From positions 9,114-73,113 of the forward strand of contig JBIOYC010000074.1 of the NCBI GenBank assembly GCA_044869955.1: DNA of 64,000 nt, given 5' to 3'. The DNA is from Thermoanaerobaculia bacterium. Lineage in GTDB: Bacteria > Acidobacteriota > Thermoanaerobaculia > Multivoradales > SZUA-115. Below are positions 2,282-63,129 of this stretch, one piece after another. Under the pieces are notes generated by a model. It was not told the origin of the DNA. It made no database searches and worked only from the letters and a program-made list of their open reading frames with translations. The translations under genes were made by a program, and so were the position numbers. Positions within the stretch are counted from its first letter, which is position 1; every line of letters starts with the position of its first letter.

Positions 2282-3859
2282 CTACCGAGGAAGCGCAGTG
2301 GCTGGAGCGAAAGAGGCTCGTTCTCCGCCCTTTTCCCACCAGAGGAAGCGAACTCCCAGGAGCTCTCCGGCCGGGTAGTTGCGGAAGCCGGCGAGCCTCG
2401 CGTCCATCACGGCGACGTTGTGCTTGGTGAAGAGGCTGAGGTAGGGCAGGTCGCGGGCGAGGATCTCCTGCACCTCGAGGTAGAGGGGGCGGCGTGCGAC
2501 GCGCTCGGGCAGCGAGGCGCCGAGGTCGAGACGCCGGTCGACCTCGGGGTTCCGGTAGCGCCCGCGGTTCTGTCCCCGGGGCGGGATGCTGTCCGAATGC
2601 AGGACCAGGCGGTAGAGGTTGGGATCGTGGATCGCCGTGCGGACCAGGCTGAAGAGCTGGAAGTTGCCGCGGGAGATGTCGCTGTAGAAGGTCGCGAACT
2701 CGTGGCTGCGCACCTCGAGGGCGATGCCCGCCTCGGCGGCCATCTGCTGGATCACCTGGGCCTGCAGGACGTACATCTCCGCGGTGGAGGTCTTGAAGGT
2801 GAGGGTGAGCCGGGGTCGGGGCCCGGGGCCGTCGGGGTCCGGGTAGCCGGCCTCGTCGAGCAGCCGCGCGGCGGCCGTGGGGTCGTGGGGGATCCGCGGC
2901 AACGCTCCGTGCCGTGCCCAGGAATCGGGCGGCATCATGGTCTCGGTGACCACCCCCAGCCCGCGCCAGAGGGTCGCGACCAGCGCCTCCCGATCGATTG
3001 CCAGGGCGAGGGCCCGCCGAACCCGCACGTCCGAGAGGATCGGATCCTCGAGGTTGAAGCCCAGATAGGCGTAGTTGCCGCCCGGGTCGGCGGCGACTCG
3101 GAAGCGGGGATCGGCCTGGAAGCGGGGCACCAGGTCCGGCGGCAGGTCGTTGATCACCAGATGGACCGAGCCCTTGAGCAGCTCGAGGGCGCGCACGGTG
3201 GAGTCCGGCACCACCTTGAGCTCGACCGAGCGGATCGCCGGTGGCGGGCGGTGGCCCCCGTCGAAGGCCTCGAGCAGCACCCGCTCCGGGCTCGTCGCCA
3301 CCACCCGGTAGGACCCGCAGCCGACCGGGCTCGCGTTCATCTCGGCGGGGGTGGTCCCCTTCGGCAGGATGCCGATCGCCGGGGTGAGCTCGATGGCGAA
3401 GGCGCCGGAGGGACGGGAGAGCACCACGTCCACGACCCCGGGCGCCGGGCTCTCGACCCGCTCGAGCTCGGTGAAGGCACCCCGCTTGGCGGTGACGATG
3501 CGACCGTCGACGATGCTCATGAGGGTGTCGATGACGTCGTCGGGAGAAAGGGCTCGGCCGTCGTGGAAGCGCACGTCGGGACGCAGGTGGAAGCGGTAGC
3601 GCCGGCCGCCTTCGAGGATCTCCCAGGAAGCGGCGGCATCGGGCTCGAGCTCGCCGGTGGGGGTCTTGATCAGGAGGCCGCACATCGAGAGGTCGAAGAG
3701 GCGGTCGGCGGCCTGATCGAGGGCCACCCGGGGGTCGAGGTGGCTGGGGGCGCTCTCGATGGCGATCACCAGCCGCTCGGGCAGGTCCCGGACCTGCGTC
3801 GGCCGATCGCAGCCGGCGAGCACGCAGGCGGCGAGTGACCAGGGGAACCAGCGGGGCAT
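2282..3859 (-). CDS. ABC transporter substrate-binding lipoprotein, family 5 (peptide/nickel, DppA/OppA-like)
   Basis: Signal peptide with an LAGC lipobox. Extended similarity to SBP_bac_5 (GGNYAYLGFN, IDREALV). The upstream part of the 1412-aa track ORF is rejected as a GC artefact. Confidence 0.8.
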   Translation of the reverse strand: MPRWFPWSLAACVLAGCDRPTQVRDLPERLVIAIESAPSHLDPRVALDQAADRLFDLSMCGLLIKTPTGELEPDAAASWEILEGGRRYRFHLRPDVRFHDGRALSPDDVIDTLMSIVDGRIVTAKRGAFTELERVESPAPGVVDVVLSRPSGAFAIELTPAIGILPKGTTPAEMNASPVGCGSYRVVATSPERVLLEAFDGGHRPPPAIRSVELKVVPDSTVRALELLKGSVHLVINDLPPDLVPRFQADPRFRVAADPGGNYAYLGFNLEDPILSDVRVRRALALAIDREALVATLWRGLGVVTETMMPPDSWARHGALPRIPHDPTAAARLLDEAGYPDPDGPGPRPRLTLTFKTSTAEMYVLQAQVIQQMAAEAGIALEVRSHEFATFYSDISRGNFQLFSLVRTAIHDPNLYRLVLHSDSIPPRGQNRGRYRNPEVDRRLDLGASLPERVARRPLYLEVQEILARDLPYLSLFTKHNVAVMDARLAGFRNYPAGELLGVRFLWWEKGGERASFAPATALPR

Positions 3860-45347: not shown

Positions 45348-48038
45348 CTACTCCCGCACCACCCGGAAACCCCGGTAGGCCGGCGCGGCGTCGCCCGAGC
45401 CCTTGGGAGCGCGCGGCTGGTCGGCGCTGGGGCCCAGGAGCTTGGCGCTGCCATCCTCGGCGAGGACCCACTCGGCGGCGTTGCCACCGAGGTCGAAGAG
45501 GGGCTCGGTGGTGCCCAGGGCGTCGAAGCGGCCGACCTCGGCGAGCAGGGGACCCTCGCCACCGAGGGCCGCGGCGGCGTTGCGGAGAGCCTCGGCCTCC
45601 TCGGGGTTGGGAGCGAACCCAGCCCAGTGGTCGAGGGTGTTCCCCAAGGTGCCAGCCGACTTGCGCAAGGCGGCCACCTCGGCCTCGCGGGGCAGCCGGT
45701 AGCGCTCGCCCGTCCTCATCGAGAGCCACTCGCAGTAGGCCCGGGCCTGCTCGAAGAGGATGCCTGTGGCCGGGTAGTTCGCCCTCGCGGCTGGCACCGG
45801 GTAGGTTGGATCGAACGTGGCGTACTGCGCGCGGGTGACCTCGAAGCGGCCGAGGGTCAACCCCTCGTGGGCCACCACCTCGGGGACCAGGACTCCCGCC
45901 ACCAGTCGCCCCAGCCGGCCATCGCTGGCGACGGAGCGGGCCCGCTCGAGGGCCCGGCCGAGGGGGGAAGTCGGCGCGAGCGCCGCTGGTTCCGGCGGGA
46001 CCTTGGTGAAGAGGTAGCGGTCGAGCCAGGCGAGCTCTTCCTCGACCTTGCGCCGCTGGTGGACGTAGCGGCCGAGACCGTGAGGCTCGCCGGGAAAGAG
46101 CACCAGCCGCACGGTGCGTCCGGCTTGCTGCAGGGCCCGGTAGAGGGACCAGCTCTGGCTGGGGGGGACGTTGCGGTCCTCGGTGCCGGTAAAGACGATC
46201 GTCGGCGTGGTCACCTCGGGCAAGCGGAAGAAGGGGCTCTTGTCGACATAGCGCTGGGGGTCCTCGAGCGGCGAGGCTCCGAAGTAGAGCTGGTCGAAGG
46301 CGGCGCCGAAGTCGACGTTGCCCCAGTCGCTGATCCACTCCACGTCCGCGGCGCCGATCGAGGCTGCCTTGTAGCGGTGGGTGCGGGTGATCAACTCGGC
46401 CGAGAGAATGCCGCCGTTCGACCAGCCGGTGGTGGCCAGGCGCTCGGGGTCGACCAGGCCACGGGCGATCAGAGCGTTCACCCCGGCTTCGAGGTCGGGG
46501 ATCTCGAGCTCGTAGTACTTGCCGCCTGTGATCGACTCCACCCACTCGAGACCGTAGTTGCTGCTGCCGTGGTAGTTGACCTCGAGCACGAAGGCGCCCC
46601 GGGAGAGCCACAGGGGCAGGGGCTTACTGACCCGGAAGGTCCACTGGTCGAGGTCGGCCCCGGCCGGGCCGCCATGGATGGCGAGGATGAGCGGCCGGCG
46701 CTCGCCCTCGCGCCAGTCGAAGGGGTAGCGCAGGATCCCCTCTACCTCGTCGCCTCGGGCGCCGCGGAAGCGCATCACCGCGCTCTTGGGCCGCGGCTTG
46801 CCGGCCCAGCCGGGGTTGGGGTGGATCGTCGGCTCCGAGGCCACGAGACGCGTCCCCTCGAGCCGAGCGCGCATCCAGACCGGAGGGTCCGAGGGCGTTG
46901 AGTGCTCGTAGAGGATGCGCTGGCCGTCGCGGCTCGCGACCCAATGGAAGACGTGGCCGGCGTGCTCGCCTTCGAGAGCGGAGCGCCGGTGGCTCGACCC
47001 GTTTCGCACGAAGCGGGCAGGGCGGTGGCGGACGCCGTCGGCGAGGAGGGCCAGGAAGCCGTCCGGAGTGGCGGTGAGGGAGCCGACCTCGCCCAGCCCA
47101 CGCGCCCAGCCAAGATCGACCTTCTGCTGGCGCCCGCTCACCACGTCGTAGTGGTAGACCTCGCTGATCGTGGCCTGGAGGTAGACGGGGTGGCTCGCAC
47201 GCTCGGCGGCGAAGTAGAAGCCCTGGCTGGCCGGTTGCCAGGCGACGTGGGAGGGGAACAGTCGGCTGCCCTCGAGGAGCCGTCGGGACTCGCCGGTCCC
47301 GAGGTCGGTCAACCAGGTGGAAGGTGCCAGCCGATTGTCGTAGCCGAAGGCGAGGCTCTGCTGGCGGCGGGTCACGGCCCAACGGCCGTTGGGCGAGACG
47401 GCGAGCAGGTCGATCCAGTCCCGGTTGTCGGTCAGCCGGGTGATCTCTCCCGACTCCAGGGCCAGGCGGAAGAGGCGGGTGGGAGGGGTGAGCGGATCCT
47501 CGACGACGATCGAGGTGTCCTTGGCCTTCTCGGTCTCGAGCTCCAGGCGCGTTGGCTCCTCCGGAGCCACGAGGACGACGTGCCCATCGTCCTGCCAGGC
47601 GAAGGTGGCCAGGGGCCGGGCCAGCGAGGTCACCGGCCAGGGCTCGCCGCCACCGAGGTCGAGCAGGAAGAGCTGGCTCGGCGCGAGCTTCTCGTCAGCT
47701 GCCTTCTCGCCGCGCCGGGGCCGATCCGAGAGGAAAGCTAGGCGGCGGCCGTCGGGAGAGAAGCGGGGGGAGCCGTGGTGGTCGGCGCCGCGGGTCAGGG
47801 CGAGCTCGCGGCCGTCGTCGAGCGAGGTCAGGAAGAGGTTGGAGGCGACGGTTCCCTTCTCCTTGTCCATCACCCGCTTGACCCACACTGCGCTACGTCC
47901 GTCCGGGGCGATCTCGACCTCCTGCACCGTCTCCTGGAGCAGCAGGTCGTCGACCGTCCACTCGCTGCTGCCGGCGACGGCGGGCTGGTTGACGCAGAGG
48001 GCGAGGAGAAGAGTCAAGGCCGAGACTGGCGAGCGCAT
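45348..48038 (-). CDS. Secreted tri-domain protein: TolB-like beta-propeller, S9 prolyl-oligopeptidase-family alpha/beta hydrolase, and a C-terminal FGE-sulfatase (SUMF1-like) domain
   Basis: Signal peptide. PD40-like repeats (SPRFSPDGRRLAFLSDR). S9 nucleophile GWSNGG. C-terminal GNAAEWV and YRGFRVVRE are typical of formylglycine-generating-enzyme domains. Confidence 0.7.
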   Translation of the reverse strand: MRSPVSALTLLLALCVNQPAVAGSSEWTVDDLLLQETVQEVEIAPDGRSAVWVKRVMDKEKGTVASNLFLTSLDDGRELALTRGADHHGSPRFSPDGRRLAFLSDRPRRGEKAADEKLAPSQLFLLDLGGGEPWPVTSLARPLATFAWQDDGHVVLVAPEEPTRLELETEKAKDTSIVVEDPLTPPTRLFRLALESGEITRLTDNRDWIDLLAVSPNGRWAVTRRQQSLAFGYDNRLAPSTWLTDLGTGESRRLLEGSRLFPSHVAWQPASQGFYFAAERASHPVYLQATISEVYHYDVVSGRQQKVDLGWARGLGEVGSLTATPDGFLALLADGVRHRPARFVRNGSSHRRSALEGEHAGHVFHWVASRDGQRILYEHSTPSDPPVWMRARLEGTRLVASEPTIHPNPGWAGKPRPKSAVMRFRGARGDEVEGILRYPFDWREGERRPLILAIHGGPAGADLDQWTFRVSKPLPLWLSRGAFVLEVNYHGSSNYGLEWVESITGGKYYELEIPDLEAGVNALIARGLVDPERLATTGWSNGGILSAELITRTHRYKAASIGAADVEWISDWGNVDFGAAFDQLYFGASPLEDPQRYVDKSPFFRLPEVTTPTIVFTGTEDRNVPPSQSWSLYRALQQAGRTVRLVLFPGEPHGLGRYVHQRRKVEEELAWLDRYLFTKVPPEPAALAPTSPLGRALERARSVASDGRLGRLVAGVLVPEVVAHEGLTLGRFEVTRAQYATFDPTYPVPAARANYPATGILFEQARAYCEWLSMRTGERYRLPREAEVAALRKSAGTLGNTLDHWAGFAPNPEEAEALRNAAAALGGEGPLLAEVGRFDALGTTEPLFDLGGNAAEWVLAEDGSAKLLGPSADQPRAPKGSGDAAPAYRGFRVVRE

Positions 48039-48109: not shown

Positions 48110-49477
48110 GTGCCCAACAGAAGGGGGAGAATGAGCGAGATCACGAGCAGTGAGGGTGCCCGCCCCGAGAGCGAGCGGGCCGGCTGGTCCAGCTTCGGCC
48201 TGATGTGGATCGGCCAGTTCGTGTCCCTGGTCGGCTCGCGCATTACCGCCTTCGCCTTCGGCGTCTTCGTCTTCGAGCAGACCAACTCGGCCTCGGCCTA
48301 CACGGTGATCCTGCTGCTCGCCGGCCTGCCGGGCCTGCTGCTGGCGCCCTTCGCCGGCGCCCTGGTGGACCGCTTCGACCGCCGGCTGGTGATGCTCGTC
48401 TCGGATGTCGCCTCGGCGGTGGCCAGCCTGCTGATGGTCCTGGTGCTGGCGTGGTCCGGGGGGCAGCTGTCGACCGGCTACGTGTACGCCTACGTGGCCT
48501 TCGGCGCCCTGCTCCAGGCGTTCCTCTGGCCGGCCTACATGTCTTCGACCACCCTGCTGATGCCCAAGCGCCACCTCGCCCGGGCGAGCGGCCTGATGCA
48601 GCTCGGCATGGCTTCGGCCGCGGTGCTCGCGCCTCTTCCTGCCCCCTGGCTCCTTTCCTCGGTGGGGGTGATGGGCATCATCTGGATCGACTTCGTGTCC
48701 TTCCTGCTCGCGGCCCTTTCGCTGCTGCGGGTGCGCATCCCGCGGCCCACGGCCAAGACGCCGCCGGCCGGGGGAGGCGGGCGAGCCAGCCTGACGCAGG
48801 ACATCGCCCTCGGTTGGCGCTTCATCCGGGAGCGACCGGGGCTGATGATCCTGCTCTGGTACTTCGCCATGATCAACCTGGTCTTCACCATGGGCTCGGC
48901 CCTGGTGACGCCGATGGTGCTCTCCTTCGCTTCCCGCGAGACCCTCAGCATGGTTTCCGCCACGGGCTCGGCCGGTTTTCTGGTGGGCAGCCTGGTGGCC
49001 GCCGCGACCGGCGGCCCCAGGCGGCGTGTGATGACCGTGCTCTCGTTCGGGTTGCTGCTCGGCGTCGCCTTCCTGCTGGCGGGCATCAAACCCTGGCCGG
49101 GGCTGATCGCGGCGGCTCTTTTCCTCGGGCTCTTCGGCGTGCCCCTGGTCAATACCTCGAGCCAGGCGGTGTGGCAGGTAAAGGTGCCAGCCGAGTTGCA
49201 GGGGCGGATCTTCGCCGTGCGGCGGATGATCGCCCAGTTCACCATCCCGATCGGCCAGCTCTCGGCGGGACCTCTCGCGGACTACGTGTTCCGGCCCCTC
49301 TTGGTCGAGGGAGGGCCCCTCGCCGGCACGGTCGGCAAGGTGGTCGGGGTCGGGCCGGGGCGAGGCATCGCCCTGATCTACCTGGCGCTTGCGGTCTTCC
49401 CCGTCGCGATCTCGGTCTGGGGCTTCTTCCATCCCCGCCTGCGCACTTTGGAGGAGGAGCTGCCAGACGCGGTCTGA
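48110..49477 (+). CDS. MFS transporter (EntS/macrolide-efflux-like)
   Basis: 12 TM helices, a DRFDRR-type loop after TM2, and a C-terminal QGRIFAVRRM motif. Confidence 0.8.
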   Translation: MPNRRGRMSEITSSEGARPESERAGWSSFGLMWIGQFVSLVGSRITAFAFGVFVFEQTNSASAYTVILLLAGLPGLLLAPFAGALVDRFDRRLVMLVSDVASAVASLLMVLVLAWSGGQLSTGYVYAYVAFGALLQAFLWPAYMSSTTLLMPKRHLARASGLMQLGMASAAVLAPLPAPWLLSSVGVMGIIWIDFVSFLLAALSLLRVRIPRPTAKTPPAGGGGRASLTQDIALGWRFIRERPGLMILLWYFAMINLVFTMGSALVTPMVLSFASRETLSMVSATGSAGFLVGSLVAAATGGPRRRVMTVLSFGLLLGVAFLLAGIKPWPGLIAAALFLGLFGVPLVNTSSQAVWQVKVPAELQGRIFAVRRMIAQFTIPIGQLSAGPLADYVFRPLLVEGGPLAGTVGKVVGVGPGRGIALIYLALAVFPVAISVWGFFHPRLRTLEEELPDAV

Positions 49478-49580
49478 GATCTCGCCGTCCGTTCTGTCTC
49501 GATTTAGAGGTCTTTGCGCACTTTCTGAGCACGACCTTGGCGCGGAAGGTGAAGCTCTCCGCGCGGGATTCGAAGTGCCC

Positions 49581-50837
49581 ATGGGCGCAGCTGCCAAGCC
49601 TCCGCTACCGTTCTCGGCCGACCGTCCGATCGCACCCGCCCGCACCATGGAGGGTCTGGTTCGACCGGGGCTGCGCGACCTGCTCGCCCTCGCCACGCGG
49701 CCCGAGGTCCTGTCCTTCTCGATCGGGCTGCCTGCGGGGGACCTGCTGCCCTGCGAGGTGATCGCCGAGGCCGCCGCCGAGCTGCTGGGCGAAGGCCCAA
49801 GGCCGGTGCAGTACGGCCTTCCCAGCAGTGAGCTCAAGGCACGCATCGTCGAGCTCATGGCCCTCCGCGGGGTGGTGTGCACGCCCGAGGAAGTGCTGCT
49901 GACCACCGGCGCCCAGCAGGGCACGGACCTGCTGGCTCGCGTGCTCATCGAGCCTGGCTCGACGGCCCTGGTCGAGGAGGTGGTCTACGACGGCGTCCAG
50001 ATGGTGCTCTGGCCGCTCAAACCCAAGGTGGTGGCCCTGCCTACCGACCCCGGCACGGGCCTCGACCTCGACGCCCTCGAACGGAGCCTCACCCGCGCCG
50101 AGCGGCCCAGCTTCCTCTACGTGGTGCCGGAGGGGCACAACCCCCTCGGCGTGTCGCTCTCCCTACCGGCGCGGATTCGGCTGGTCGAGATCGCTGCCCG
50201 GTTCGGGGTGCCGGTGATCGAGGACGATGCCTATGGCCACTTGACCTACGACGCCCCGCCGGCGCCGGCGCTCGCCAGCCTGGACCGCCGGCGGGTGATC
50301 TACCTCGGCTCCTTCTCGAAGGTGCTCGCCCCCGGGCTCCGAGTGGGCTGGATCGTCGCCCCCCGCGAGCTGATGCCCACCCTGGCTGCCCTGAAGCACG
50401 CGAGCGACATCGACACCACCTCCCTCGGCCAGCGGATCGTCGAGCGGGTGCTCGAGCGCGGTGACTTCCAGGACCACTTGGCGCGTCTTCGCAAGGAGTA
50501 CGCCCGCCGCCGCGACGCCATGGTCTCCAGCTTGATCCGGTCGATGCCTGCGGGGGTGCGCTGGTGGCGGCCCACCGCGGGCTTTTTCGTCTGGGCCGAG
50601 CTGCCGCCCGGATTGGACAGCGCTGAGCTGCTCCAGCGTGCCGTGGCGACCGAGCAGGTGGCGTTCAGCCCTGGCCGCGTCTTCGCCGTGGGAGATTGCC
50701 GTCGGGGCCGTTCGGGGATGCGGCTGTGCTTCGCCCCGCAGAGCCCGGAGCGGATCCACGAGGGCATCGCCCGTCTATCCCGGGTGATCGCCCGCGAGCT
50801 CGAGCCGATGGCCGAGCCGGCTCTCTCAGCGGGCTAG
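49581..50837 (+). CDS. PLP-dependent aminotransferase (MocR/2-aminoadipate transaminase-like catalytic domain, no HTH)
   Basis: GLPAGDLLP, VPEGHNPLG, and the Lys in SFSKVLAPGLRVGW. The start may instead be the ATG at 49650. Confidence 0.7.
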   Translation: MGAAAKPPLPFSADRPIAPARTMEGLVRPGLRDLLALATRPEVLSFSIGLPAGDLLPCEVIAEAAAELLGEGPRPVQYGLPSSELKARIVELMALRGVVCTPEEVLLTTGAQQGTDLLARVLIEPGSTALVEEVVYDGVQMVLWPLKPKVVALPTDPGTGLDLDALERSLTRAERPSFLYVVPEGHNPLGVSLSLPARIRLVEIAARFGVPVIEDDAYGHLTYDAPPAPALASLDRRRVIYLGSFSKVLAPGLRVGWIVAPRELMPTLAALKHASDIDTTSLGQRIVERVLERGDFQDHLARLRKEYARRRDAMVSSLIRSMPAGVRWWRPTAGFFVWAELPPGLDSAELLQRAVATEQVAFSPGRVFAVGDCRRGRSGMRLCFAPQSPERIHEGIARLSRVIARELEPMAEPALSAG

Positions 50838-50891
50838 GAGGCTCCCGACCTTCGGGTATCATCCGCCGTCCCATCGACGAAAGGACGGCCC

Positions 50892-51856: not shown

Positions 51857-52561
51857 GTGGCCGAGCAGCCCGAGCTGGACAGGTCCTTCGAGCAGGTTCC
51901 TCTCACCCGCAACGAGTACATCACGGCGATCGTCCACTACTACCGTGGCGAACGCAGCCGTGCCGACGCCTGGCGAGCCCGGCTCGATCCCACCACCAAC
52001 TGGGCGGTGGCCACCACCGGAGCGATGCTCTCCTTCGCCTTCTCGAGCCCCGAGCACTCGCACGTGGCGCTGCTGCTCGCCTTCTTCTTGGTGTCGATCT
52101 TCCTCGGTTTCGAGGCCCGGCGGTTCCGCTACTTCGACGTCTGGCGGGCGCGGGTGCGGATGATCGAGGAGAATTTCTTCATCCCGATCATCCGGCGCAA
52201 GCTTGAGAGCCCGCGGCATGACTGGCGCGAGTCGATGGCCCGGGACCTCGATCACCCGACCTTCAAGATCAGCACCCTCGAGGCGGTGGCGATCCGGCTG
52301 CGCTTCAACTACATCTGGATCTTCCTGGCAATCCTGGTCTCATGGCTCGCCAAGCTGTCCGTGCATCCGACCAAGGCCACCGCGACCGGCGAGATGGTCG
52401 AGCGCATGGCGGTCGGGCCTCTGCCTGGCTGGCTGGTGCTGGTGATCGTCAGCGCCTTCTGGCTCGGACTCAGCGGGCTCGCGCTGTGGGGGCGGGGCCG
52501 GGGGCGCGGCGGTGACGAGGTGCACGGTCTCGAGAAGGAGATGGATCACTGGAAGACGTGA
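51857..52561 (+). CDS. DUF2270 family membrane protein
   Basis: GTG start with GGGAGG 6 nt upstream. Three TM helices. The upstream 380 aa of the track ORF are rejected. Confidence 0.55.
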   Translation: MAEQPELDRSFEQVPLTRNEYITAIVHYYRGERSRADAWRARLDPTTNWAVATTGAMLSFAFSSPEHSHVALLLAFFLVSIFLGFEARRFRYFDVWRARVRMIEENFFIPIIRRKLESPRHDWRESMARDLDHPTFKISTLEAVAIRLRFNYIWIFLAILVSWLAKLSVHPTKATATGEMVERMAVGPLPGWLVLVIVSAFWLGLSGLALWGRGRGRGGDEVHGLEKEMDHWKT

Positions 52562-52574
52562 ACGCGAGCTCTGC

Positions 52575-52596
52575 CAAGGTGCCAGCCGAATTGCGG
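52575..52596 (+). repeat. Exact 22-nt repeat CAAGGTGCCAGCCGAATTGCGG, copy 1
   Basis: Identical to 57273-57294 in the same orientation. A 2-mismatch copy lies inside the MFS CDS at 49181-49202. Confidence 0.6.
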
Positions 52597-52658
52597 TTCA
52601 CGGCCGACGAGTGGCGAGGTCCAGGGCATCGGCGGCGGTTTTACGTCTACATCTAGTG

Positions 52659-53576
52659 ATGGGTCGTCCACTTCGCTTCATTCCACCGGGCTCGCTGGTC
52701 GCGGTCACGACGCGGACTCTCCAGGGAAGGCGTCTGCTTCGACCGTCCGAGCAGCTCAACGACATCATCAGAGGGTGTCTCGGGCGAGCTCAGCGGCGGT
52801 ACAGCATGCGTGTGCACGGCTGCACGTTCTTGTCCAACCACTTCCACCTCCTGCTCAGCCCGGACGACCCTTACCAGCTCGCCGCCTTCATGAACTATTT
52901 CAATTCCAAGCTGGCGAGGGAGGTCTCCCGGCTCCATGGGTGGACCGAGCGTATCTGGGGGCACCGATATCACGCCATTCCGGTCAGCGACGAAGAGTCT
53001 GCGCAGCTGGAGCAACTGGAGTACCTGCTGGCCCAGGGTTGCAAGGAGGATCTGGTCGAACGGCCCGAGGAGTGGCCGGGAGTGCACAGCGCTGAGGCTC
53101 TATGTGAGGGCACCGCAATGCGCGGCCACTGGCACGACCGCACCGCCGAGGCCCTTGCGCGCCATCGCGGCAAGCGGTGTGAGGGCTTGAGCCTTGTTCA
53201 CCCTGAGCAGGTCGTGTTCTCCCCTCTACCTTGCTGGGCGCACCTGCCACCGGACCAATACCGCCAGCGCATTCGAGGGATCCTGCAGGAGATCACTTCG
53301 CGGTATGCGGCTGAGAGGGCTCGGCGAGGGGTCAAGTGTCTGGGTGCCGAGCGAGTCCGGAGCCAGGACCCTCATACCCGCCCGGTTTCCATGGCAAGGC
53401 GGCCGCCGCCGTGGATCCACGCCGCAAGCGTTGCGATCAGGATCGCTTTCCGCCAGGCGTATCGCGCCTTCGTCATAGCCTTCCGGGAAGCCGCCGAGCG
53501 CCTGAGAACTGGGCGGCTGCCCGTCTGCTTTCCGCCCTGGAGCTTTCCTCCTCCCTGGCCCCGGCCCACGGGGTAG
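52659..53576 (+). mobile_element. IS200/IS605-like HUH (Y1) transposase-family protein with an extended C-terminus (RAYT-like)
   Basis: The HUH motif SNHFHLLL and a Tyr region (HRYHAIPV). No terminal inverted repeats were seen, and it appears single-copy in the window. Confidence 0.6.
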
Positions 53577-53868
53577 CACACTCGCCGAACCACCGTTCGT
53601 GATGTCTAGGACGACCTTGAGCCCGGGCGAGGTGGGTCTTTCGACGCGTCTGGACGACCTCCGGGCGTTCCCCGCTTGCACTCGCCGCTTGCTCCTGACG
53701 GGTTGACGGTCTGCATCGAGGTGTTGGAAGGAGCCTCGAGAGGCAATTCTCTGTGCAGAGACCAACTGCTCTCCGCCGAGTGCTCCCTCGTCGGAAAGAC
53801 GGCTGGCACCTTTTTCTCCGCCCTGGAGGAGCCGGGGGCTGGCGAGACCCCCGGGCCGAGGGTGTCTT

Positions 53869-56800
53869 CTACTTCAAGCGCAGGCGCTGCCAGCCCCCAT
53901 CCCCGCGCTGGCCGTTGGGGTTTTCGACGCGCACGTAATGCCAGTTCCAGTTGGCGGCGTCGAAGGCGAGGGCCGGGTCGAGAGGGACTTCCTGGAAGAG
54001 GAAGCCGTTGTCGGTGAAGGCGGCTGACACTGAAGGAGCGAAGGGACCCCCCAGGATCAGCCGCAGGTACTCGCGGGGGTCGAGCTCGGCGGCGGTCTCC
54101 CAGATCGGCCGGCCGGTGACAGGGTCGACGTCCCCGGTGGGATGGATCGGCAACGACATCGAGCGCAGTAGCACCTGCCCCGGCTGATTGGGCCGCTTGG
54201 TCAGGTCCGGTGGCGTGACGGCGGCGGGGTCGTCGTGGCTGAAGAGCACCAGCCTCGCCCCCGGTAAGATGCCGTTCGCGGCCACCCGTAAACGTCGCGG
54301 CGCCTCCCAACGAACCGCCGTGCCGAAAGCGCTCTCACCCGCCGGGGCGCTCGCTACCACGCCGGCCTGGAACAGGCGGACGGTGTGGGAGAAGAAGCCG
54401 CCGTGCTGGTTGTCGGCCGGATCCTGCCAGTTGAGGGTCATCTTCGGCACGGTGGCGTAGGCCGTGTTCGTGGCGATGGGCTGGAGCACCACGCCACTCG
54501 GGGCGCCCGGAGCGCTGGGTGAGGGTTGCCCGCTTGGCGCTGCCACTCGGCGCTCGCTGCCAAGCGGCGTCACCACCAACACCAGCCGATCGTTGGTCGA
54601 GCCCAGCAAGCTGGTCAGCTGGACGCGGGTCAGGCTCGCTCCCGGGGGCTCTTCGACAAAGAGGCTGGCACCTGGGTCGAACCAGAAGCCGCGGTCGGTG
54701 GCGCCCAGGTGGGCCTGCACGGCCAGCCCGTTGTTGGCCTTGCGCGTCTGGTCCTCGGCGAGGCCGAAGGCCGTGGTCGTCAGGGGATCGGCCAGGTTCG
54801 CCAGGTCCACGGTGTAGGCGATCCCCACCAGCGGGCCGACACCCCAGTCGAGCTCGTGGATGAACTGGTTGAGCTGTTGGAGGGTCGGGCAGAAGGGCAG
54901 GCCGGGCGGACAGAGAACGCCGCCGAAGAAATGACGGTCGAAGGCGTTGATCGTCGAGGTGCGGTTGAAGTCGGTGTTGGTCTGGAGGGGGTCCTTCAGG
55001 ATGAAGCCGGTGTGGAAGAGGCCCTCGAGCCCGGTGATCGGCGCGCCGTCCGGATCGACGGTGCCGGCGCGGGTCAGGCGAGCCTCCTTCTGGAACAGGC
55101 CGCGCAGGGCGGCCGTCTCGATCGGCTGGGTGGCGAGCTCCTCGGCATGATCGGCGGGATTGGTGCCGCCCACACGCTCGGTGATCTTGTTGTTGCTTCC
55201 CTCCGGCAAGGCATGACAGTGCGCGCAGGACATCAGCAGGTCGGACTGGATCAGGTGGTAGATGGTGAGGCCGGCCTGGGCGCCGGTGGGCAGGGGCGGC
55301 GGGAAGGTCTCGTCGACGAAGGGCTCGCCCGAGAACACCCGGCCCAGGGGCTGGCGGGGGTTGGGCGGATAGTTGACCGAGTTGATGAACTCCCGGAAGC
55401 CCTCCATCTCGTCGTCGGTGATCCCGGTTCCGGCGAGCAGGCTGACGAAGGCAGGCTTGAACTGGGTGAAGTCCTCGCGGTCGCCCCGCCAGTGGTAGGG
55501 GGCGTTGGTGAACAGGTCTTGGATCTCCGGCCCCACGTCGAAGTTGAGCAGTCCCTGGAGGGACTGCGTAACCATGTGCTCCTTGTCGGCCGGCCAGAAG
55601 CTCGGCATCAGCAGGCTGTCCTTGAGCTGGGGATCGATCGGCACCTGCACGCCGTCGCCCAGGTCCCAGGCGAGGCCGTCGGTGCGGCCGTCGATGTGGC
55701 AGCTCGAGCAGGAGTTGAAGCCGTTGCCGTGCTCGGCCGAGTAGAGGAAGGTGCGGCCAGCCTTGATGTGATCGGGAGTGGGGTCGTGCCGGAGGGCGAA
55801 CTGGCCGACCGAGGTCTCGGTCACCGGGTTGAGGATGGTCACCGAATTGTCGAGGCGATTGAGCACGTAGAGCCGCGGCCCGGGGTCGTTGGGGTTGCCG
55901 GCATCGGGCCCCTTGATCACCAGGCCGCGGGGCCCGGCGACCGGGCTCACGGAACCAGGGACCGGGGCCATGGCGATCCGCCGGAGGAGCCAGGAGTCGG
56001 CGGAGGAGGACCAGTCGGGCTCGATCACTCCGACCCGGTCGCTGCTCAGGGCGGTGAAGAACACCTTGAGCGGCCCGCTGGAGCCCCGGTAGGTGGCCAC
56101 TCCGGTGAGCTGGGCGAGGGCCTTGGTCTTGGGTACCGGCTGCATCGCCGGCAGCAGCGCCGCCTTGTGGGCCACGAAGCTGCCGAAGACCTCGGTGCCC
56201 GGCGCCACCAGAGGCTGGAGGGCGGGCTCGAGGTTGACGTCCCGGACCTTGAACGTGGGCGTGCCGGAGCACAGCCCACGCACCATCGTGAAGGTGCTCT
56301 TGACGAAGCCGGTCGGCGCGGCGGCCACCACCGCCTCGTCGCGCAAGGTGGTGTTCAAAGCCTCACCGCCGACGATGAAGAGGTCGTCTCCGGGCCCCCA
56401 GGTCATGTGGAAGTTGGCCGAATTGGGCAGGGCGAGGTCGGCGGCTGCACCGCCGGCCGTGGGCAGACTGTAGAGATCGAAGTCGAAGTGCTGCGTGTTG
56501 CCGCCCTTCTCGCCGAGCAGGAAGAGCTTGCCGCAGTGAACGTCGACGTCGCGGGGAGACTTGAGGGCGATGAGGTCGTTCTGCCCGTCCTGGTCGATGT
56601 CTCCCTTGGGCACGGTGGCATCGAAGAGGAACGCGCCCGGGATGATCGGCTGCAAGGTCAAGGCATCCCGCCAGCCGAGGGCGTCCTGGTCGCGATGCGC
56701 CAGGAAGAGGGAGTGACGCAGCACCGTGCCGCCAGCGCCGTCGTCCTCCTCGAAGGGATGGTAGGCGAGGGAGACCGGCTCGTCGCCCACCCAGTCGGTG

Positions 56801-57171
56801 CGCTCGACCGTCGCCACAACACCGGCCGTGTCGCCCGGGTCCAGGCGGATGATGGTCACCGAGTCTGACAGCGCGTTGGTGACGTAGAGCCGCGACAGCT
56901 GGGGCACCCAAAGCAGGGAGTTGGGCTCCAGGCCGGTGCGTACGCGAGCGATGAAGCGGGAGCCGATCGGTAGGGTCTCCTCGGTGTGGTAGAGCTCGAC
57001 CGAGTTGTCCGGGGTGTTGACCACCGCCAGGAACTGCCTGCCTCCGACCGAGACGATCGCCAGGGGATCGACCTGTACGGTCTCGGTGTTGAAGTAGTCG
57101 GTCCGGCCCTGGGCCAGCAAGGCCGGGGCCCAGAGCAGGGCGAAGAACCACAGCCAGCGCTTTGCTCTCAT
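53869..57171 (-). CDS. Large secreted protein: YVTN-type beta-propeller repeats fused to a di-heme cytochrome c peroxidase (CCP/MauG-like) domain
   Basis: Signal peptide. LYVTNALSDSVTI and LYVLNRLDNSVTIL are YVTN repeats. Two CxxCH heme sites (CSSCH, CAHCH). GGAGG SD. Confidence 0.7.
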   Translation of the reverse strand: MRAKRWLWFFALLWAPALLAQGRTDYFNTETVQVDPLAIVSVGGRQFLAVVNTPDNSVELYHTEETLPIGSRFIARVRTGLEPNSLLWVPQLSRLYVTNALSDSVTIIRLDPGDTAGVVATVERTDWVGDEPVSLAYHPFEEDDGAGGTVLRHSLFLAHRDQDALGWRDALTLQPIIPGAFLFDATVPKGDIDQDGQNDLIALKSPRDVDVHCGKLFLLGEKGGNTQHFDFDLYSLPTAGGAAADLALPNSANFHMTWGPGDDLFIVGGEALNTTLRDEAVVAAAPTGFVKSTFTMVRGLCSGTPTFKVRDVNLEPALQPLVAPGTEVFGSFVAHKAALLPAMQPVPKTKALAQLTGVATYRGSSGPLKVFFTALSSDRVGVIEPDWSSSADSWLLRRIAMAPVPGSVSPVAGPRGLVIKGPDAGNPNDPGPRLYVLNRLDNSVTILNPVTETSVGQFALRHDPTPDHIKAGRTFLYSAEHGNGFNSCSSCHIDGRTDGLAWDLGDGVQVPIDPQLKDSLLMPSFWPADKEHMVTQSLQGLLNFDVGPEIQDLFTNAPYHWRGDREDFTQFKPAFVSLLAGTGITDDEMEGFREFINSVNYPPNPRQPLGRVFSGEPFVDETFPPPLPTGAQAGLTIYHLIQSDLLMSCAHCHALPEGSNNKITERVGGTNPADHAEELATQPIETAALRGLFQKEARLTRAGTVDPDGAPITGLEGLFHTGFILKDPLQTNTDFNRTSTINAFDRHFFGGVLCPPGLPFCPTLQQLNQFIHELDWGVGPLVGIAYTVDLANLADPLTTTAFGLAEDQTRKANNGLAVQAHLGATDRGFWFDPGASLFVEEPPGASLTRVQLTSLLGSTNDRLVLVVTPLGSERRVAAPSGQPSPSAPGAPSGVVLQPIATNTAYATVPKMTLNWQDPADNQHGGFFSHTVRLFQAGVVASAPAGESAFGTAVRWEAPRRLRVAANGILPGARLVLFSHDDPAAVTPPDLTKRPNQPGQVLLRSMSLPIHPTGDVDPVTGRPIWETAAELDPREYLRLILGGPFAPSVSAAFTDNGFLFQEVPLDPALAFDAANWNWHYVRVENPNGQRGDGGWQRLRLK

Positions 57172-57272
57172 ACCTCCTCCTCACGGAGACCTCGGCTCGA
57201 AGGGGCGCCGGTCTCTCGTATCGAAGAAAGCGGATCTCTTGGAGTCGGGAGATAACGCCCTTCCCGGGCGCG

Positions 57273-57294
57273 CAAGGTGCCAGCCGAATTGCGG
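57273..57294 (+). repeat. Exact 22-nt repeat CAAGGTGCCAGCCGAATTGCGG, copy 2
   Basis: Identical to 52575-52596. It lies about 100 nt upstream of the cytochrome c peroxidase fusion gene start. Confidence 0.6.
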
Positions 57295-57304
57295 GACGAG
57301 GAGG

Positions 57305-57763
57305 TCAGCTGGGTGGAGAGGCCGCCTTCGTGGCGCCGGGCGGGCCGCCGTAGGTGGCGCGGACCCGCTCGGACGTGGCCAGGTAGGCGAGCCACACTCC
57401 ACAGAGGGCCATCGAGCCGAGGGCCAGGGGTCGCGGCTGCCCCGCCACCTGCCAGGCGTAGAGGGAGTTGGCGACCAAGACCGCCAGGCTGAGCGCCCAC
57501 CAGGTCCAGGCATGGGTCGGGGCATTCCGGTTCCTCGCCACCAGCAGAAGGCAGGCGACGGCGCCGTAGAGGCCCAGAGCGCCGCCGCCGAGGGCGAAGG
57601 CCCTCACCGCCGCGGGTTGACCGCCGTCGAAAGCGACCGGCGTGCCCATGACCGAGATGAACGACGTGATGGCCATCATCACGGTCATCAGGGCGAGCAG
57701 GCCCCGCACTCCGACGTAGGCGTTGTGGGGGCGGGAAGCCTCGGTCATGGGTGGGATCTCCAA
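57305..57763 (-). CDS. Small integral membrane protein (four predicted TM helices), hypothetical
   Basis: Hydrophobic segments and high GC3. It lies immediately downstream of the PrdB/GrdB-family gene on the same strand. Confidence 0.45.
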   Translation of the reverse strand: MEIPPMTEASRPHNAYVGVRGLLALMTVMMAITSFISVMGTPVAFDGGQPAAVRAFALGGGALGLYGAVACLLLVARNRNAPTHAWTWWALSLAVLVANSLYAWQVAGQPRPLALGSMALCGVWLAYLATSERVRATYGGPPGATKAASPPS

Positions 57764-57773
57764 GCGATCGGGA

Positions 57774-58517
57774 TCAGTCGAGGGTGTAGTCGGCGAGCAC
57801 CGGACCAGGGCCGGCGGCCGTCTCGAGCAGGGTGAGGGCGGCCTCGAGCACCCGGTGCTGGACGGCGGCGTCGCCGGGTGCGCCGAGGGCGTAGCCGTGT
57901 GGGAAGGGTACGGCCAGCGCCCGGGGCGGACGGGTCTTCTCGGCGATCATGCGCAGCAAGATGAGGGTCACGGTGGCGATGCCCCGGCGTTCCAGCTCGG
58001 CTGCGACCAGACTCACGGTCTGGTTGCACGTCGGTCACACGGGCACCAGCAGGGCGACGTCCACGCCGTCGGCGACGAAGCCCGCTGCGGCCTCCGGCGC
58101 CGACTCACCGATCAGGCGGCCGGGGGCGGTGATCGAGCCCATGAAGGAGAGGTGGCGGCTGTTGAGCTCGCCCAGCCGCCCGCTCGCCACCAGCTCGCGG
58201 GCGCGGTCGAGGGGCAGGGCGAGGTTGCGGTCGGCCGCCAGCCCGCTGTGATCGAAGGCGTCGCTCCTGTGGTTCTCGACCAGGCTTTGGAGAACGGCGT
58301 CGTGGGGGATCCAGCGATAGCTCCAGTCGCCGCCTTTGATCGTTTCGTCGAATCGAGGTTGGTCGGGCAGGGACAGCCCTCCCGAGGTCACCAGCCCGAG
58401 GCGGCCTTCGGCCAGGGGTCGGGGCAGGGGAGCCCAGGCTGGGGGGTCGATCCGTCGCCACGGGTAGGTCGTCAGGAAAACTCGGTACTTCCAGGGCATC
58501 TCGTCGAGGCGCGCCAT
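57774..58517 (-). CDS. PrdB/GrdB-family (glycine/sarcosine/betaine/D-proline reductase protein B) protein; candidate selenoprotein with an in-frame TGA (Sec) near 58036
   Basis: The track gives two same-frame ORFs (58035..58517 and 57774..58016) separated only by one TGA and six sense codons (PTCNQT). The readthrough product ...GVDVALLVPV-U-PTCNQTVSLVAAELERRGIATV... resembles the Sec motif region of PrdB/GrdB as I recall it. A hairpin lies 11 nt 3' of the TGA. Confidence 0.55.
58011..58028 (-). promoter_or_regulatory. SECIS-like stem-loop (CCAG(G)AC-CGUGA-GUCUGG) 11 nt downstream of the in-frame UGA
   Basis: A 6-bp stem with a 5-nt loop, possibly with one bulged G, read directly. Its position matches the bacterial SECIS spacing rule. 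Exact coordinates are ±1. Confidence 0.4.
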
Positions 58518-58843
58518 GGCGCGATACTACCGTCGCGCCCCCGCCTTCACGTCGCCCCTCGAGGCTGGCCCAGCCGTGTTCGACGCCCCCCGACCTCGCC
58601 TCGCCTCCCTGCCTGCTCTCTCGGCTCGGGCGGTCAGCAGCCTCCCGTGGCGACCGGATCATCGGAAAAACAGAATGCAATTTATGCTAGACATAGGCAA
58701 GATTGACATTTGATGCTCTCATGGCTATCATCACGCCAAGCTCAAGGTACTTTCCGGATCTTGCGGGGAGCACACCGCCCCAGACGCACCATCGCTCGCT
58801 CCGGGAGACTGGTCTCCCGAGACATCGCCAGGAGGTTGAAGCC

Positions 58844-62124: not shown

Positions 62125-63129
62125 ATGATGCGAAAGACCATCCTGGCGCTGGCTCTGTCCTCTGCTCTCGGAGTCGCGACGACCCAGTTGCTCGCCGTGG
62201 ACAAGGCGGTGGAGCCCGGCCTGTCCTACCACACCTTCATCGAGACCAACGGCACCCTCAGCGGACGCATCTGGTTCGCCATCTGCTGCGATTGCTCCGG
62301 CACGGGTGACGAAACGTCTCCGTTTTCGATCGGCGACGACGATGACGATGGCGGCTGCGGTGGGAGCTGCTGCAACTGCCCGCCGGTGGAAGACGAGACG
62401 TCCCCGATCCGGATGGACGAGCGTACCGGTGGCCAGCACGGCGATGATGATGACGACGACGATGATGATGACGATGGCGGTGCTTGCGACGGCAGCGGCT
62501 CGCTGGACGTCGGCGGCGTGACCGTGGACCTGTTCGACGGGGATGGCAACCTCGTCGACTCCCAGGTGAGCGCTCAGGACGGCAGCTACTCCTTCTCGGA
62601 CCTGGCCGAGGGCAGCTATCGAGTGCAGGTGGCCGATCTGACCTTGCCGTCCGGCGTGCGCCCGGTCTTCGACGTCGACGGCACGACGACGCAGCACCGG
62701 GCGGTGGTCCAGCTCGACAGCGGCGAGAATCGCTCGGGAGTGGATTTCGGCTACGGCGGGTGCGCGCCGGGCACCGGCACTCTCGGCTACTGGAAGAACC
62801 ACCCGGACGCCTGGCCGGAGGAGCAGATCACCGTCGGCGGGGTGACCTACGGCAAGGACGAGGCGATCGCCATCCTGCGCACCCCGAGCCGGGGCGACAA
62901 GACCTACGACCTGTTCAAGCAGCTGGTGGCGGCGCAGCTCAACGTGCAGATCGGCAACCCGAGCAGCTGCGTCACGGTCACGATCGCCGAGGCGGACGCC
63001 TGGCTCGTCACCTACCCGCTGGGCAGCCGGGTCCGGAGCTCGAGCTCGGCCTGGGCCACCGGTGCCCCCCTGCACGCGACCCTGGACGACTACAACAACG
63101 GCGAGCTCTGCGCGCCGCATCGCGGCTGA
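62125..63129 (+). CDS. Secreted Cys- and Asp-rich protein with a poly-Asp tract and a C-terminal SdrD-B/Cna-B-like beta-sandwich domain
   Basis: GAAGGA SD. Signal peptide. The sequences CCDCSGTGDE, GGCGGSCCNC and an 11-residue poly-Asp run. The C-terminal domain contains VTVDLFDGDGNLVDSQVSAQDGSYSFSDLAEGSYRVQV. Confidence 0.65.
   Translation: MMRKTILALALSSALGVATTQLLAVDKAVEPGLSYHTFIETNGTLSGRIWFAICCDCSGTGDETSPFSIGDDDDDGGCGGSCCNCPPVEDETSPIRMDERTGGQHGDDDDDDDDDDDGGACDGSGSLDVGGVTVDLFDGDGNLVDSQVSAQDGSYSFSDLAEGSYRVQVADLTLPSGVRPVFDVDGTTTQHRAVVQLDSGENRSGVDFGYGGCAPGTGTLGYWKNHPDAWPEEQITVGGVTYGKDEAIAILRTPSRGDKTYDLFKQLVAAQLNVQIGNPSSCVTVTIAEADAWLVTYPLGSRVRSSSSAWATGAPLHATLDDYNNGELCAPHRG
62310..62480 (+). repeat. 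Low-complexity GAC/GAT (poly-Asp/Gly) coding tract
   Basis: Runs of gacgacgatgatgatgacgat read directly. It is part of the CDS above. Confidence 0.6.

Follow-up and report, generated by a model that had tools for sequence, protein, structure and literature searches.

The window analysed here, a stretch of 64,000 nucleotides from a Thermoanaerobaculia bacterium, carries the same 22-nt word twice, at two sites that enclose a Y1 (HUH) transposase gene and a gene for an 1100-aa YVTN/di-haem protein. This raises the question of whether the two copies are the ends of one 4.7-kb unit, as the initial annotation implied by describing a bracket, or serve the transposase in some other way. The 22-mer CAAGGTGCCAGCCGAATTGCGG was confirmed by exact match at 52575-52596 and 57273-57294, both on the + strand and so in the same orientation, and direct reading placed the first copy 62 nt before the transposase ATG and the second 101 nt before the 1100-aa gene, which starts at 57171 on the − strand. 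In 100 dinucleotide-preserving shuffles, the 22-mer found no match at three or fewer mismatches. The annotation had named a word confined to these two sites as evidence against its reading; further copies were found both in the window and in relatives. A 13-nt core, AAGGTGCCAGCCG, has six exact copies, at 45646, 47321, 49181, 52576 and 57274 on the + strand and at 53800-53812 on the − strand. These are confined to 45.6-57.3 kb (0.14 expected at up to one mismatch), and the core is missing from the remaining 52 kb. Counting a variant inside the 1100-aa gene, the family has at least seven copies in the window, with a non-palindromic consensus of about 19 nt, AAGGTGCCAGCCGAnTTGC. The features are as follows.

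45645..45666, + strand: copy in the S9 peptidase/FGE gene, FGE-sulfatase domain; reads RKSAGTL, in another reading frame than the 47320 copy
47320..47341, + strand: copy in the S9 peptidase/FGE gene, propeller region; antisense to this − strand gene, reads DNRLAP
49180..49201, + strand: copy in the MFS transporter coding sequence; 18/18 specified consensus bases, encodes KVPAELQG in frame
52575..52596, + strand: first of the two exact 22-mers and left terminal repeat of the transposase unit; the ATG at 52659 follows 62 nt downstream
52659..53576, + strand: Y1 (HUH) tyrosine transposase gene, 305 aa, RAYT/TIRYT-like
53794..53812, − strand: right terminal repeat, an inverted motif copy reading AAGGTGCCAGCCGTCTTTC on the − strand, 217 nt past the transposase stop
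54654..54674, − strand: variant copy CAGGTGCCAGCCTCTTTGTCG in the 1100-aa YVTN/di-haem gene; 11-mer with 1 mismatch, encodes DPGASLFVE
57273..57294, + strand: intergenic solo copy (second exact 22-mer), exact match

Every motif copy recurs unchanged in GCA_044868285.1, a sibling assembly with 99.65% identity over 21 kb, and the copies are therefore not an assembly artefact. No longer homology was found around them: only the motif of about 13-19 nt aligns, and the flanks are unrelated, which leaves the suggestion of a segment-duplication footprint without support. The same holds for a shared regulatory site or sRNA seed target, as an Rfam scan of 44-59 kb returned nothing at E ≤ 1 and no conserved structure was found. 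The earlier description of the repeat as non-palindromic was borne out, since the three intergenic copies, folded on both strands, showed no hairpin or self-complementarity (z −0.8 to +0.95 against shuffles).

The transposase carries the two hallmarks of the Y1 HUH superfamily (TnpA_Y1), namely a HUH metal-binding motif (NHFH, residues 60-63) and a single catalytic Tyr on the C-terminal helix of the HUH fold, for which Y122 is the candidate; H61, H63, and Y122 are invariant among homologues. Its C-terminal stretch of about 160 aa is conserved, and the protein showed neither an HTH nor a Bac_DnaA_C domain. Among NCBIfam models, the RAYT model NF047646 scores best, at 53 bits and under its cut-off of 80, and the IS200 model NF033573 reaches 17.7 bits against a cut-off of 55. 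The class-2 RAYT signature in the Y motif, Y---NP (Quentin et al., 2018; PMC6006769), is absent, with the window protein reading Y122-LLAQG and its homologues Y-[VIL]L[AS]HG. The family comprises 1423 database proteins at E ≤ 1e-5, mostly of about 305 aa and mainly from uncultured Thermoanaerobaculia (Acidobacteriota). Public gene calls shorten the transposase to 256 and 270 aa versus 305; an exact-protein look-up of the transposase was empty because the public gene call begins later, and that of the 1100-aa protein also gave no match. The window holds a single transposase copy, and some other genomes hold several paralogues.

The inverted copies at 52575 (+) and 53812 (−) enclose the transposase gene only and delimit a unit of 1.24 kb, in which the 13-nt core of the right repeat (53800-53812) begins 224 nt past the transposase stop. 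The partner of the first 22-mer is thus the inverted copy at 53794-53812, and the idea that the two exact 22-mers bracket a 4.7-kb unit is not supported. The same arrangement recurs in 80 metagenome loci recruited through the protein alone, independently of the motif: the core lies upstream on the + strand in 48 of the 71 usable loci, most often 40-44 nt from the start, and downstream in inverted orientation on the − strand in 29/56 loci, 207-256 nt after the stop, for a unit length of 1214-1281 bp. About a third of the protein-recruited loci are without the core at one mismatch or fewer, and in one lineage (L130, L134, and L155) the motif stands about 295 nt upstream with no obvious right copy. 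Genome loci were also recruited through the motif, among the matches listed, and then searched by tblastn with the window protein, which gave homologues in five of them (L058, L059, L099, L010, and L092). The four with complete genes (L058, L059, L099, and L010) have the motif 40-80 nt upstream in the same orientation, and an inverted copy follows about 230-290 nt downstream in L058, L099, and L010 together with L013, and about 900 nt downstream in L059. The architecture is therefore conserved across a large protein family of uncultured Acidobacteriota, mainly Thermoanaerobaculia, and the motif itself persists across proteins only 41-54% identical to the window transposase.

Comparison of closely similar elements located their ends. 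Loci L149 and L151 are 99.95% identical from AGGTGCC inwards and unrelated outside it, and homology likewise stops at the motif in the pairs L136/L140, L130/L155, and L161/L164. Because near-identical elements lose homology at its outer edge, the motif marks the element termini, and because these breaks come with differing flanks, the unit moves. The proposal that the repeat may be a transposase recognition end thus gains support at the sequence level, as the motif flanks homologues in the five genome loci and in most metagenome loci and homology ends there. Within one element, the two ends differ at 5.55 of 22 positions, as against 7.07 between elements (0/5000 permutations as low), a co-variation that could stem from a genome-specific motif variant rather than from element-specific recognition. 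No target-site duplication, which the initial annotation had suggested seeking at the flanks, was visible in 24 elements. An alignment of the 3′ spacer from 22 loci gave no predicted pairs and little conservation except in the right repeat.

A syntenic relative, L194 (about 85% nucleotide identity), provided a view of the locus over time. Its transposase occupies the corresponding chromosomal site, with 81% amino acid identity, and the comparison with the window gene gives a dN/dS of 0.18 at a dS of 0.64 (dS 0.37-0.53 for the neighbouring genes); the shared site and the purifying selection indicate that the transposase behaves as a long-term resident gene, in line with descriptions of RAYTs. 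The ortholog of the left repeat, at 9813 in L194, matches at 18/19 nt. The 1100-aa gene is reduced in L194 to a 162-nt relic, whose motif copy is identical to CAGGTGCCAGCCTCTTTGTCG and sits 286 nt after the transposase stop, and relic homology stops about 12 nt beyond this copy. Between two motif copies, a 238-aa gene and the 1100-aa gene are swapped between L194 and the window, and homology resumes at window position 57267. The solo copy has a degenerate ortholog at 11893 in L194, with two more copies in tandem ahead of it, at 11840 and 11867. The comparison with relatives thus divides the earlier proposal: the transposase and motif copies are present in L194, and the 52.6-57.3 kb segment as a whole is not. 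Loss of the 1100-aa gene beside a retained transposase in L194 means that the 4.7-kb segment does not form a unit. The 1100-aa protein is one of a widespread family whose full-length, end-to-end members number in the hundreds, and its gene is therefore an ordinary resident gene.

Outside the unit, the motif behaves as a dispersed repeat. In related Thermoanaerobaculia assemblies it is scattered, mostly intergenic and often arranged in tandem direct arrays, with up to 12 copies per 8 kb and an array period of 26-45 nt among the matches listed. Of 44 classifiable exact copies in relatives, 39 lie outside coding sequence (27 in non-coding DNA, 10 at gene edges, and 2 between genes) and 5 within it. 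The 22-mer at 57273, which stands 10 nt from the stop of a 147-aa gene and 101 nt before the start of the 1100-aa gene, is one stray solo member of this family. Copies concentrate around the transposase, within ±7 kb, in the window as well as in L194.

The copies inside genes were compared with homologous proteins and with L194. The in-frame reading of the MFS copy as KVPAELQG, already given in the annotation, was confirmed, with the copy placed at 49180-49201. An alignment with 20 homologues, which read KVPPDVQG or KVPADLQG, is ungapped at the motif, and the MFS copy is therefore not an insertion. The FGE domain differs from ToxD and PvdO by only two 2-residue gaps, both in ToxD beside the SAG residues, with no large insertion, and an in-frame insertion as the origin of the genic copies was rejected on these two alignments. 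In L194 the MFS copy retains a 13-nt core including the CCA codon, the orthologous position of the 47320 copy matches at 19/19 nt, and the ortholog of the 45645 copy bears L194's own motif variant, AAGGTGCCAGCCTCTTTGC. Overall, 3/5 of the 13-nt cores are fully conserved against a background of 19%, a marginal excess (p about 0.05). A partial inverted copy at 45788-45798 was dropped from the family because it matches at only 8/11 in L194 and is not conserved.

Three kinds of known system resemble this one in part. RAYTs (TnpA_REP) reportedly accompany REP/REPIN/BIME repeats as REPtrons, in work by Nunvar in 2010, Bertels and Rainey in 2011, and Ton-Hoang in 2012, with 4er8 as the corresponding structure. 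Like a REPtron, the locus has a transposase gene that is single-copy, passes vertically, and is under purifying selection, and it lies between inverted copies of a short, mostly intergenic repeat with occasional genic copies. In contrast to REPtrons, the repeat has no palindrome, hairpin, or 5′ GT[AG]G foot plus stem, its arrays are direct rather than alternating in orientation, and the protein lacks Y---NP and scores under the NCBIfam cut-off. IS200/IS605 elements (IS608, ISDra2) have subterminal hairpins, no TIRs, a TnpA of about 150 aa, and often tnpB. Like them, the present unit is multi-copy in different contexts in some genomes; unlike them, it has TIRs, lacks hairpins and tnpB, and encodes a protein of twice the length. 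An IS200/IS605 identity was rejected on the 305-aa length, the NF033573 score of 17.7 versus 55 bits, the TIRs, and the single copy in the window.

The closest match is the TIRtron/TIRYT class of Di Nocera et al. (2013; PMC3733652). There, TIRtrons are common in species without classical REPs, an Acidobacteria group is described, and TIR families occur singly, as dimers and in clusters. Our unit matches this class in that a RAYT-like Y1 gene lies between inverted repeats rather than REP hairpins, and in that the repeat belongs to a dispersed family, with at least seven copies in the window; according to that text, only some TIRtrons have a dispersed TIR family. Several differences stand beside these likenesses. 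The Acidobacteria TIRYTs given there (aba1552, aba3477, tsa392, aca645, and gma794) show the motifs HVH and Y..NPV..GLV and, in the published alignment, stop about 25-70 residues past the Tyr motif, whereas the window protein has NHFH, Y-LAHG-KE-LV, a length of 305 aa, and a conserved C-terminal half. The motif AAGGTGCCAGCCGAnTTGC is unrelated to the TIR consensus GGGGWSAS, which in that source fits most published TIRs and not all, and the consulted part reports neither long tandem direct arrays nor conserved genic copies for TIRs. Quentin et al. (2018; PMC6006769) equate TnpA_Y1 subclass 2.1 with TIRYTs and found no REP-like sequences for subclasses 2.1 and 2.3. The window protein resembles these subclasses in its length, its extra conserved C-terminal domain, its NH[YF]H-type HUH motif, and the lack of REP hairpins near the gene; it differs in its sharply defined repeat and in having no HTH, Bac_DnaA_C, or Y---NP (PMC6006769). 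In the literature searched, this protein subfamily and motif were not found described, and the only hits to the motif string there were primer sequences without relation to it. The transposase unit thus belongs to a kind that is known but little studied, and its protein subfamily and motif are apparently undescribed.

Taken together, the 22-mer is most likely an end repeat whose cognate enzyme is the resident RAYT-like Y1 (HUH) transposase, and the 4.7-kb interval is not a unit. We infer that the transposase recognises and cleaves the motif: the protein would bind it, and the HUH/Tyr centre would nick and rejoin adjacent single-stranded DNA. In some genomes, such nicking and rejoining would mobilise the unit as a whole; in others it would give rise to solo copies and arrays or alter their size. 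Sequence recognition may be provided by the conserved C-terminal half, as the motif has no hairpin. A simple cut-and-paste model does not predict tandem direct arrays or genic copies that did not arise by insertion, and the genic copies present in both the window and L194 remain unexplained by this account.

Other explanations were weighed against the end-repeat reading. That the 22-mers are direct-repeat ends of a 4.7-kb segment carrying both genes, whether att-like, a target duplication, or a duplication footprint, would fit their 22/22 match, their shared orientation, and the exactly two genes enclosed, but is very improbable given at least seven copies rather than two, one of them inverted between the two genes. 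L194 moreover retains the transposase and its flanking copies with the 1100-aa gene only as a relic, the 1100-aa protein has its hundreds of full-length homologues, the transposase is an old resident of the site, and sequence beyond the copies is not duplicated. Also very improbable is a genome-wide signal word that has nothing to do with the transposase; a DNA uptake sequence, a Chi-like/polar motif, and a sigma-54-type promoter were considered. The motif's non-palindromic form and its presence in genes (in several reading frames) as well as between them would suit such a word, and TGCCAG-N5-TTGC resembles TGGCAC-N5-TTGC, with a hexamer-tetramer spacing equal to the sigma-54 consensus. Yet the invariant GG is missing at −24, the available GG being 13 nt from GC and so 3 nt too far, and on the reverse strand TGGCAC stands without a correctly spaced TTGC in every copy. 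An uptake or polar word was rejected on the six exact cores within 12 kb, which are not an even kilobase-scale spread, and on the non-genic position of 39/44 copies in relatives. The absence of the core from the other 52 kb, the strong enrichment in non-coding DNA and tight tandem arrays, and the constant placement at either end of the transposase unit all speak against any signal word of this kind.

A more serious competitor, although we consider it unlikely, is that the motif is mainly a selected protein-binding site (an operator or nucleoid-organising site of a domesticated Y1 protein or a host factor), with autoregulatory flanking copies and little transposition today. It is not mutually exclusive with the end-repeat reading. 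It accommodates a transposase that is single-copy here, syntenic, and under purifying selection, the shared clustering of copies around the gene, within ±7 kb, in the window and in L194, and the left copy 40-62 nt before the start codon, a possible operator position. Genic copies at orthologous positions in two genomes about 15% apart, with 3/5 cores conserved, would also be expected, but the excess conservation is weak at p about 0.05. Against it, homology breaks at the motif edges and differing flanks show that the unit moves, some genomes have several paralogues, and the variable tandem arrays resemble repeat dynamics rather than fixed sites. It is, finally, rather doubtful that the motif copies, including genic ones that leave the protein undisturbed, are kept by selection as sites where a domesticated Y1 enzyme binds or nicks the chromosome locally, for site-specific rearrangement or cassette exchange, or else for organising or regulating a neighbourhood of about 12 kb. 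If true, the swap of the 1100-aa and 238-aa genes between motif copies would be an example of cassette exchange, and a RAYT-like protein would have a host function through a non-hairpin DNA word.

Under the end-repeat reading, the YVTN/di-haem gene is no longer suggested as mobile-element cargo, and for annotation the motif accounts for a class of intergenic arrays in these assemblies. Nearly all work on the role of RAYT-like single-copy transposases and on the spread of their short repeats concerns the hairpin REPs of Proteobacteria. A short, non-palindromic cognate word would offer a clean substrate for testing hairpin-free DNA recognition by a Y1 HUH enzyme.

The 22-mer CAAGGTGCCAGCCGAATTGCGG occurs in two exact + strand copies, at 52575-52596 and 57273-57294; 100 shuffled controls gave zero matches, even when three mismatches were allowed. 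In agreement with the initial annotation, the first copy lies 62 nt upstream of the ATG of a Y1 transposase gene (52659), and the second lies 101 nt upstream of the start (57171, - strand) of a gene for an 1100-aa protein. The exact pair thus stood, but the repeat count was incomplete: a 13-nt core, AAGGTGCCAGCCG, is present in six exact copies, none outside 45.6-57.3 kb of the window (0.14 matches expected at up to 1 mismatch), and a search for a 19-nt consensus, AAGGTGCCAGCCGAnTTGC, allowing up to 3 mismatches, gave six matches versus 0.09 expected. One copy (53794-53812) is inverted and sits between the transposase stop (53576) and the 1100-aa gene stop (53869), and a motif variant lies within the 1100-aa gene (54654-54674). 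Three copies are intergenic (52576, 53812, and 57274) and three are coding (45646, 47321, and 49181), the latter in three different reading frames; codon-position GC content gave the same split for all six. The genes of this region, assigned by using Pfam and NCBIfam, are as follows.

45348-48038, - strand, S9 peptidase with a C-terminal FGE-sulfatase domain
48110-49477, + strand, MFS transporter
after the MFS gene, + strand, in order: aminotransferase, 300-aa ORF, and DUF2270 (ends at 52561)
52659-53576, + strand, Y1 transposase
53869-57171, - strand, 1100-aa YVTN-repeat protein with two CxxCH motifs
57305-57748, - strand, 147-aa membrane protein

No similarity between the surroundings of the copies was found beyond the motif itself, and no copy folded into a hairpin better than shuffled controls. 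All copies are unchanged in a sibling assembly, GCA_044868285.1 (99.65% identical over 21 kb). The 73 differences from this sibling cluster at 47142-47344, 50570-50681, and 58401-58526, a pattern resembling recombination tracts or mixed strains in the assemblies. The 200 nt of the first cluster, 47142-47344, hold 19 of them; the motif copy at 47320-47341 lies within this tract and is free of differences, the last of which (47344) comes just past it. An exact 11-mer, GGTGCCAGCCG, at 45788-45798 (- strand) lies inverted, 140 nt from the 45646 copy, and encodes PVPAAR within the FGE domain; matching at 8 of 11 positions in a syntenic relative, it is not conserved and may be a chance occurrence. 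Elsewhere in the window, a pair of 53-nt direct repeats 120 nt apart (62334-62506), rich in GAC/GAT triplets (CGACGACGATGACGATGG...), probably encodes an Asp-rich low-complexity stretch.

When 185,579 species genomes were scanned for AAGGTGCCAGCCGAnTTG, the matches listed included many multi-copy loci in Acidobacteriota/Thermoanaerobaculia assemblies, as well as scattered single ones in other phyla, attributable to chance. Tandem direct arrays are frequent in the former assemblies (period 26-45 nt, variable spacers), with up to 12 copies per 8 kb, and the 19-nt consensus was derived from 189 motif instances. When the motif-selected loci were searched with the window transposase by tblastn, five contained homologues (44-62% identity); every complete gene had a motif 40-80 nt upstream in the same orientation, and an inverted motif followed ~230-290 nt past the stop in three of these four loci and ~900 nt past it in the other. 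The reverse test used 80 metagenome loci picked by protein alone (homologues 41-54% identical). Of 71 usable loci, 48 had a + strand core (up to 1 mismatch) in the 200 nt ahead of the gene, most commonly at exactly 40-44 nt from the start; of 56 loci, 29 had an inverted copy 207-256 nt past the stop, giving units of 1214-1281 bp (1237 bp in the window). The annotation's tie between repeat and transposase is therefore borne out motif-first and protein-first.

In near-identical element pairs, homology extends up to the motif's outer edge and no further: loci L149 and L151 are 99.95% identical inwards from AGGTGCC and unrelated outside, and L136/L140, L130/L155, and L161/L164 end in the same way. 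Left and right repeats of the same element differ at 5.55 of 22 positions, versus 7.07 between different elements; 5000 permutations yielded no value as low as the former. It follows from the two-way association, the homology ends, and the greater likeness of repeats within an element that the motif forms the terminal repeats of this transposase unit and that, in some lineages, the unit has moved in its entirety.

Some loci depart from this arrangement. In one sub-lineage (L130, L134, L155, and L182; e.g., L155 5708-7056 and 756-1595), the motif lies ~295 nt upstream of the gene, no inverted right copy is obvious, and the 132-kb contig that bears the gene also carries a partial second copy of it, which suggests an insertion-sequence-like duplication. 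A 7.66-Mb genome (L195, contig_3069; 1850-2000 and 2918-3300) contains three or more clusters of transposase paralogues, and a different repeat variant, TGGCACCTAT, occurs several times on both sides of one copy, its upstream copies being opposite in orientation to the usual arrangement.

The transposase residues H61 and H63 (NHFH) and Y122 are invariant among 41 homologues, and the C-terminal half is likewise conserved, with no match for the C-terminal ~160 residues. The nearest NCBIfam model is the REP-associated tyrosine transposase (53 bits, under the cut-off of 80), with IS200 far off (17.7 bits). At E ≤ 1e-5 the family comprises 1423 database proteins. Most are ~305 aa long; they are commonly labelled "REP element-mobilizing transposase RayT" or "transposase" and often come from Thermoanaerobaculia, and some complete genomes carry several paralogues. 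The 305-aa ORF (52659-53576) is conserved over its full length in the family; an exact-protein look-up with it gave no match because public gene calls begin at internal codons (256 aa in the sibling, L192 14472-15242; 270 aa in the syntenic relative, L194 10001-10813).

This relative, L194, comes from Thermoanaerobaculia assembly GCA_036274895.1. At 84-85% nucleotide identity, it is colinear with the window and shares the gene order protein kinase, S9/FGE, MFS, 300-aa ORF, DUF2270, and transposase; colinearity restarts at the 147-aa gene and its neighbours. Its transposase occupies the same position, has 305 aa, and is 81% identical, with a dN/dS of 0.18 and a dS of 0.64 (neighbouring genes, 0.37-0.53), indicating an old resident under selection, as reported for RAYTs (PMC5581495). 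The 1100-aa gene is missing save for a 162-nt relic (window 54520-54683), followed by an unrelated gene for a 238-aa membrane protein. Since the 1100-aa protein has ~1,477 homologues of similar length, many full length, the gene is intact in the window and was deleted in L194. Retention of the transposase without this gene rules out the annotated 4.7-kb segment bracketed by the 22-mers as a unit. Homology resumes at 57267, six nt ahead of the second 22-mer. The corresponding site in L194 holds a degenerate version, ATGGTGCCAGCCTAGTTTC, with two additional tandem copies before it. The second 22-mer is therefore a lone family member, at a site of variable array size, rather than the distal end of a segment.

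The replaced interval is window 53593-57266 versus L194 10830-11885. Two of six rearrangement breakpoints, 54683 and 57267, lie within ~12 nt of motif copies (54672, -; 57274, +), with a roughly estimated chance probability of ~0.003. The aminotransferase gene (Aminotran_1_2; 49478-50852, between MFS and the 300-aa ORF) is also missing from L194, and no motif copy is found at its junction. The 1100-aa protein carries CSSCH and CAHCH haem-binding motifs and weak YVTN/YncE propeller matches; its family is sizeable and has no Pfam or NCBIfam domain assignment above threshold.

The coding copies are not large insertions. The MFS copy encodes KVPAELQG in frame, as annotated; its KVPAELQ aligns ungapped with 20 homologues at a conserved family motif (KVPPDVQG or KVPADLQG), and the coding sequence itself spells the motif, its CCA and TTG codons ending in A and beginning with T, respectively. 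The FGE-domain copy lies in a stretch that can be aligned with ToxD and PvdO; the alignment contains no large insertion and only two gaps, each of 2 residues, in ToxD. Di Nocera et al. (2013) reported REPs within genes, but as insertions (PMC3733652). All three coding copies are at orthologous positions in L194, two with the core intact; the third has three clustered base changes that yield CCTCTTTGC, the variant present in L194's own intergenic copies. Full core conservation (3 of 5 versus a 19% background) is a marginal excess, and the coding copies may stem from selected binding sites, copy-to-copy conversion, or another activity of the enzyme.

The locus lacks the defining features of REPtrons, RAYT genes with REP hairpins (hairpin, GT[AG]G foot, and Y---NP), and of IS200/IS605 elements (short TnpA, subterminal hairpins, and no TIRs). 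Its arrangement fits the TIRtron/TIRYT class of Di Nocera et al. (2013), in which RAYT-like genes are flanked by terminal inverted repeats instead of hairpin REPs, and some of the TIRs constitute families of moderate abundance that occur as single copies, dimers, or clusters (PMC3733652). It differs from the examples given there in that the published Acidobacteria TIRYTs have HVH and Y..NPV..GLV motifs and the published TIR consensus is GGGGWSAS (PMC3733652). Long subclasses with C-terminal domains, for which a REP-like sequence was not found, have also been described (Quentin et al., 2018; PMC6006769), and the motif string is absent from the searchable literature. From family membership and anatomy, we infer that the enzyme would recognise the motif and nick single-stranded DNA beside it. 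Collectively, the locus belongs to a known but little-studied class of which this member is new, noteworthy for a deeply conserved, putative non-hairpin recognition word, its tandem arrays and coding copies, and rearrangement endpoints that adjoin motif copies.
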